This document shows, piece after piece, positions 5,130-5,441 of a stretch of 5,958 nt of DNA (within the stretch, counting starts at the first letter, position 1; each line of letters opens with the position of its first letter). Below the pieces are notes generated by a model. The model was not told where the DNA came from and made no database searches. It was given only the letters and a program-made list of their open reading frames with translations. Made by a program: the position numbers and the translations under genes. The DNA comes from a virus (lineage: Duplodnaviria; Heunggongvirae; Uroviricota; Caudoviricetes): IMG/VR virus record IMGVR_UViG_2698536337_000006; one strand, written 5' to 3'.

Positions 5130-5441
5130 CTTCATCACCTCCGGACGTAAATCACCATCCTTTGGTGCATTCAGAAACGCGTTCAGTGTCCCCGGTGCAT
5201 CAGTCGGTGCCACATCAATATCCCCGACACGGGTTGGCTGCCAGCCGTTACAGTGAAGCGCAACCTCGTAATACCCCGGCTCAGCCTCAATCACATAAGC
5301 ACCGTTATTGTCCGTCACGCAAGTGGCAACAACGTGTGCCACAACGGTCGGACTGGTTCTTCTGGCCCGCAGTTCAATCGCACAATTTACGACAGGTTTA
5401 CCCGCCCCATCTTTCAGTACACCTGAAATCTTTACTGCCAT
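5130..5441 (-). pseudogene. stf: N-terminal fragment (~104 codons) of a second, divergent side-tail-fibre allele, interrupted by the IS21 end
   Basis: [28 protein letters not shown]...PGTLNAFLNAPKDGDLRPEVMK is roughly 40-45% identical by eye to the N-terminal domain of the intact stf. The reading frame then runs into IS-derived codons (CQRQ-stop at 5115). Confidence 0.7.

Follow-up and report, generated by a model that had tools for sequence, protein, structure and literature searches.

Lambda Stf and Rac StfR are side tail fibres of the PF08400 type. Experiments have shown that lambda trades stf/tfa segments with defective prophages, through homologous recombination on short stretches of identity (De Paepe et al. 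2014, PMC3945230). The locus described here is like the lambdoid mosaic joints of that work in setting a short, near-invariant segment beside a highly divergent module, with several fibre types represented; it is unlike them in that we see no sign of recent exchange at this locus, the joint being, as we argue below, inherited. A second point of comparison is technical. The Sanger pipeline runs Velvet, then SSPACE and GapFiller, with Ns placed at joins; the paper that describes it terms these steps greedy, warns that they can yield false joins, and lists 299 S. sonnei assemblies with a mean of 405 contigs (Page et al. 2016, PMC5320598).

The window analysed here (the whole stretch of DNA, 5,958 nt) is the entire 5958-bp contig CXBL01000210.1 of the S. 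sonnei draft assembly GCA_001250715.1, in reverse orientation. The accession series and the style of the scaffold lead us to infer that this assembly was produced by the pipeline of PMC5320598 and, with its origin inferred in this way, the window resembles a false join of the kind described there: it has a single N with flanking duplicated sequence and a block that ends where two paralogues diverge, and its sister scaffolds interleave the same two prophages. We propose that a fragment of a second tail-fibre gene (stf') stands beside the intact stf through a false join of two similar prophages in a short-read draft, such that the 996-bp unit at 4877–5872 would be an artefact; judging from sequence comparison, we put the probability of this reading at roughly 85%. 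The fragment itself is a real pseudogene, but from another locus. In what follows, the prophage that carries stf is called A, and the one that carries stf' is called B.

The features of interest all lie on the minus strand; Pfam was run on the ORFs, with the domains assigned as below. Read from 5958 to 1, the order is partial lom, terminator, stf', IS21-family left end, lom 3' fragment, terminator, stf, tfa, spacer and IS1 tip:

1–31, no strand assigned: terminus of an IS1 copy, at the edge of the contig (same junction in E. coli MLI023K1, with the IS1A transposase gene just beyond the match)
781–1362, minus: tfa, tail-fibre assembly chaperone, 193 aa (PF02413 Caudo_TAP, E = 4.6e-44)
1362–4445, minus: stf, intact lambda/Rac-like side tail fibre, 1027 aa from ATG (PF08400, Phage_fiber_2, Collar)
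4414–4876, minus: repeat copy 1, which holds the 3' part of lom (91-bp deletion included), the terminator and stf coding nt 1–32; runs on into stf in complete genomes
4462–4483 and 5458–5479, minus: intrinsic-terminator hairpin after lom, two copies (terminator scan)
4876–4544, minus: second lom 3' fragment (Pfam Ail_Lom)
4877, no strand: scaffold gap, deposited as a single N and given as A in the window (window compared with CXBL01000210.1)
4878–5129, minus: IS21-family left end (~250 bp), istA codons 1 to ~50 with ATG at 5028 (98.5% identical to annotated E. coli IS21-like istA elements)
5130–5441, minus: stf', codons 1–104 of a side tail fibre of the 470-aa type, IS-truncated (PF08400, E = 1.6e-36)
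5410–5551 (= 4414–4555), minus: 142-bp segment perfect in both prophages, within which the right-hand block switches prophage (100% identical in L006, L007 and L009)
5410–5872, minus: repeat copy 2, duplicate of 4414–4876 (alignment)
5540–5958, minus: lom of the type found in the stf prophage, 91-bp deletion included, cut off by the end of the contig (Ail_Lom; 100% identical to L012 9484–10032)

Alignment of the two copies shows that 4414–4876 and 5410–5872 form a gap-free, perfect 463-bp direct repeat, which takes in the 3' part of lom, the intergenic terminator and the RBS and reaches 32 nt into the fibre ORF (start codons at 4445 and 5441, both ATG). The identity of stf' to stf is perfect over these first 32 coding bases and the 431 bases upstream, and falls to ~55% at the nucleotide level from coding nt 33. 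By BLASTP the two 104-aa N-termini share 52/104 residues (50%), and only 40/92 (43%) beyond the 12 shared residues at the start. The first-pass annotation, which had placed a 104-aa fragment at 5130–5441 and described ~32 bp of identity followed by 40–45% amino-acid identity, was exact in its coordinates, with fibre sequence ending at 5130 and the IS beginning at 5129, and is borne out in its description of the break. A perfect repeat of 463 bp, taken from the alignment as it stands, cannot be put down to chance.

The sole mismatch between the window and CXBL01000210.1 lies at 4877, which is A in the window and N in the deposited record; it is precisely here that the IS21-like fragment gives way to the second lom copy. 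With an N deposited at this base, the window consists of two scaffolded blocks (1–4876 and 4878–5958), without true contiguity. On the minus strand the bases at 4878–4879 are GC, where the IS21-like sequence reads CA, and match neither IS nor lom. Continuity across the novel junctions, as a real tandem duplication or insertion would have it, was not found here, there being an N at 4877 and two unmatched bases adjoining it. The right-hand block, by comparison, is free of Ns throughout 4878–5958, the stretch between prophage A lom and stf' included. The A that stands in place of the N in the window masks the scaffold join, and the mismatch at 4878–4879 may be a contig-end error or may be a site where IS copies vary.

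The native setting of each half could be read from finished genomes, in a comparison of complete chromosomes that covers six shown individually and 22 similar places grouped with them. In the six complete S. sonnei chromosomes shown, the prophage A locus runs J–lom (a 160-aa call)–stf–tfa–IS1, with lom and stf directly adjoining, and an insertion between lom and stf is absent from the finished S. sonnei genomes (the six shown and the 22 similar places). Window positions 1–4876 and 5410–5958 are 100% identical (BLAST) to the complete loci L012, L013, L015 and L017, where the equivalent of 5873 abuts the equivalent of 4876; deletion of 4877–5872 (996 bp) restores the finished J–lom–stf–tfa locus base for base. 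No match to 4877–5409 lies within 10 kb of stf in L012–L021, and when the whole window was searched against 5426 complete E. coli genomes the full arrangement was found in none, the best coverage (~88%) being that of the window minus the 996-bp unit. The tfa gene is 100% identical to that of complete S. sonnei loci, and the exact 1027-aa Stf protein is present in 3688 index blocks, many complete S. sonnei chromosomes among them.

Prophage B is represented by the FORC_011 chromosome and seven draft contigs, with the exact stf' product placed after J and an intact 199-aa lom and followed by the same IS as in the window; window positions 5077–5551 are 100% identical to stf' contigs L006, L007 and L009. 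The native place of stf' (L001, L004–L008) is directly after J and lom, which is also where stf stands in lambda-like tails. What the two prophages share perfectly is the 142-bp segment, which extends from the last bases of lom across the terminator and RBS to coding nt 32 of the fibre gene; upstream of it their lom genes are ~90% identical, and downstream the fibre N-domains are ~55% identical. Prophage B lom is without the 91-bp deletion, its 3' sequence reading ...CTGATTACGTCATTCAGTTATGCC..., and 9/9 other stf' records (FORC_011, the seven draft contigs and L032) have the intact, B-type 199-aa lom upstream. The 100% identity that the window displays upstream of the 142-bp segment is very probably one prophage sequence written twice by the assembler.

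An origin of the two lom copies in two independently evolved prophages was also considered, and rejected: the copies are 100% identical and have the 91-bp deletion in common, and the lom before stf' is only ~90% identical in the nine other records. As to the deletion itself, it lies, relative to the intact 199-aa lom, between two CTGGCG direct repeats (the site is at 4550–4555 in one window copy of lom and at 5546–5551 in the other, minus strand), and frameshifts the gene such that the ORF ends ...SLAH*; it is present in every complete S. sonnei locus inspected, and lom is therefore a fixed pseudogene there.

Comparison of the prophages of related strains thus places stf and stf' in different lambdoid prophages, A and B being seen in separate complete genomes and together in drafts only. 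It had been suggested in the first-pass annotation that the host carried, or recombined with, a second fibre type. In one respect this stands, as the host lineage does have a second lambdoid prophage with stf'; what does not stand is the placing of two alleles side by side, or of a recombination event, at the window locus, where 4877 is an N and where the layout is one that is absent from the complete S. sonnei chromosomes inspected.

We suggest a model for how the false join might have come about, in which we infer the order of the assembler steps. In S. sonnei there are two remnants of lambdoid prophages whose tail modules are alike: prophage A, with J, lom bearing the 91-bp frameshifting deletion, stf (1027 aa), tfa and IS1; and prophage B, with J, intact lom (199 aa) and an stf' cut after codon 104 by an IS21-family insertion. 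The 142-bp perfect repeat, presumably longer than both k-mer and read length, would be left unresolved by the assembler, and the right-hand block (4878–5958) would be a single contig that passes from prophage A lom, through the repeat, into the stf'–IS of prophage B. True read pairs linking lom to stf might then lead the scaffolder to set that contig before the stf contig, with a negative gap. During gap filling, the stf contig would be extended back via the repeat and lom up to the point of paralogue divergence, and the other contig lengthened by ~200 bp into the IS, with one N remaining. Such a mechanism would explain the block boundaries as well as the N, the two stray bases and the perfect duplication of 463 bp. 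The last base of the left block, 4876, is also, reading upstream, the last before the A and B lom genes differ, and is where extension from mixed reads would stall.

Other scaffolds of the same assembly series behave in a similar manner. In the sister scaffold L032 the stf'–IS piece ends ≤9 nt from the same IS position, and beyond a single N the sequence resumes midway through J of prophage A; the scaffold as a whole mostly alternates A and B pieces at Ns (6978, 9743, 11182, 14871–14881 and 17445). A further scaffold (L022) has a P2-type phage fibre gene joined across a single N (9983) to the same lom position. A single-N join of this kind is also present in L008, at 2925.

Two alternatives accept more of the window as real. 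The bolder would have the stf'–IS segment of prophage B copied into prophage A with 463 bp duplicated, one end made by homologous pairing in the 142-bp segment and the other by an illegitimate join, with a few filler bases, inside lom. The R-X-R layout with its perfect repeat is what a template switch or Campbell-type insertion leaves behind, and the crossover interval does fall within the shared 142-bp segment; were this true, the 996-bp unit would be a ‘caught-in-the-act’ exchange of fibre modules between resident prophages via the lom–stf joint. We nevertheless regard such a structural variant as very unlikely: the junction that would be illegitimate is deposited as an N and sits exactly where the lom paralogues diverge, L032 joins the same IS piece across an N to a different partner, and the layout occurs in none of the complete genomes seen. 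A biological illegitimate junction with a 3-nt filler had been entertained, and was dropped once the base proved to be N in the record.

The more modest alternative takes the right-hand block as real and only the join at 4877 as false, prophage B lom having been converted to the deleted A type at locus B. It draws on the uninterrupted run of sequence from 4878 to 5958, and on the experimental demonstration of prophage–prophage exchange in stf regions on short identical stretches (PMC3945230). All nine other stf' records, however, have the intact, B-type 199-aa lom upstream, and the outer end of the block (5958, which is 4962 in prophage A) lies near ordinary contig ends of prophage A (L029–L031), as expected if the stretch is prophage A's own sequence. 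We think such a conversion unlikely; the N-free join of lom to stf' in the right-hand block reflects either true gene conversion in this isolate or a mistake of the assembler at the 142-bp repeat.

The identity break between the two fibre genes has a history of its own, which we followed in an alignment of the lom–stf junction from six sequences: the two window copies, the full-length stf' gene of E. coli CFSAN029787, E. coli SC407 (which supplies a third fibre type), an Stx1-converting phage and E. coli MLI023K1. From ~45 nt before the end of lom to coding nt 32, across the terminator and RBS, the sequences are nearly invariant, with only scattered single-base differences over ~140 nt, and all four fibre N-domain types in these six sequences diverge from coding nt 33. 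Because four fibre types share the same break nucleotide, we read the identity break as an old, inherited and widely shared lambdoid mosaic joint, not made in the present host. Through such a conserved joint at the 5' end of stf, fibre modules can be exchanged. The first-pass annotation had read the sharp transition as the signature of a recombination breakpoint at a conserved module junction: the conserved junction is there, in four types and at the same nucleotide, and the event at the window locus is not. That the break was made in the present host by a second fibre type is scarcely credible; identity is indeed perfect to nt 32 and then collapses, but the same break is seen in unrelated E. 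coli prophages and an Stx1 phage, across four N-domain types, so that the joint predates the present host, and the arrangement of the locus is itself not real.

The fragment belongs with the PF08400 side tail fibres. Its residues 1–104 match profile positions 1–104 of 134 with 125.7 bits, against a curated cut-off of 26.6 bits, and it resembles lambda Stf and Rac StfR both in this match over all 104 residues and in the 12-residue start of the family. At 5130/5129 the full-length gene reads on CGCTTTGAG..., and the window instead reads TGTCAGCGCC..., which is the IS end. This end abuts the interrupted stf', with the start of istA ~100 bp inside, as in an IS21 insertion; the stf' frame enters the IS for four codons and then meets a stop, which leaves no intact, expressible fibre gene. 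We conclude that stf' is an IS-truncated pseudogene of another S. sonnei lambdoid prophage.

As a member of the IS21 family (istA/istB), the window element is alike in its 98.5% nucleotide identity and in the N-terminal HTH of istA, for which the istA stump gave HTH Pfam hits, and differs in being a left end of only ~250 bp that stops at the scaffold gap, short of istB, the right end and the target duplication; we take it to be IS100-like. S. sonnei FORC_011 has the identical IS truncating its stf', and there the element is broken in turn by another IS. The stf' module in S. sonnei (FORC_011, L004 10001–15099) is shredded by several IS elements. Exact-protein look-ups of a 110-aa, GTG-start version of stf' and of a 53-aa IS::lom fusion ORF returned no record, the latter because the record has an N at 4877, and a promoter scan of 4300–5958 found no promoter-like sites, returning the lom terminators only.

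A full-length parent had been called for, with an Stf-like N-terminal domain, and was found in the 470-aa protein WP_046880233.1 of E. coli CFSAN029787, whose gene has 100% nucleotide identity across the fragment. PF08400 covers residues 1–131, with no further Pfam domain; the gene is followed by one for a DUF4376 protein and, ~0.2 kb further on, by a frameshifted ipaH (CFSAN029787, L001 2504–6312). The fragment has, in other words, a full-length homologue complete with N-domain, distal part and downstream DUF4376 protein. Compared with lambda-like Stf, the parent is short (470 aa), is without Phage_fiber_2 and Collar, and is paired with the DUF4376 protein in place of a Caudo_TAP chaperone; the S. 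sonnei stf' is by contrast a dead stump of 104 codons. The proposal of a second, genuine side-tail-fibre type is accordingly upheld, the fragment being the N-terminus of an existing 470-aa parent. A different receptor specificity, which had also been proposed, is not something that the fragment can be made to tell: because the diverged part is the N-terminal PF08400 domain, and the fragment holds part of this domain without the distal fibre, nothing about receptors follows from it. The parent and stf do differ in their distal parts and in their chaperones (DUF4376 versus Caudo_TAP).

The stf' N-domain type is rare, being present in 11/5426 complete E. coli genomes (megablast). Among 50,697 deposited phage records there was no close relative of this N-domain type, the best phage relative being phiP27, at 38.5% identity over the full length. 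What residual interest the fragment has lies in this rarity, and in its proximity to ipaH in one carrier genome. The biology is otherwise already known in kind, and conforms to expectation for Shigella and lambdoid phages: a decaying prophage has a fibre gene inactivated by an IS, and stf begins at a conserved joint. The locus also serves as a caution, as a perfect repeat and an odd draft-contig junction mimicked a recombination scar where, in all probability, there is a scaffolding join of paralogous prophages; prophage gene order in drafts of such assembly series is not to be trusted.

A few smaller observations concern the left-hand part of the window. An IS1 gene lies downstream of tfa in the S. 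sonnei loci, and the terminal repeat at 1–31 we take to be that of IS1. The spacer between tfa and IS1 (120–780) is AT-rich (28–38% GC) and has no annotated gene in E. coli MLI023K1; within it, a 33-aa hydrophobic ORF, MKIQSKLIVLLNIIIAFILFELLAQKFGLSTLF, at 414–515 on the plus strand might be a small membrane peptide. An Rfam scan for structured RNAs in the repeat returned nothing beyond IS009 (candidate sRNA), a 218-bit match inside tfa, in its 3' half (821–1019, minus strand). Lastly, 63 bp of tfa (1176–1238) are missing in S. sonnei 53G (L014) and in two draft contigs (L020 and L021), for which gene callers give a product of 150 aa and not 193 aa; this is a tfa polymorphism within S. sonnei.
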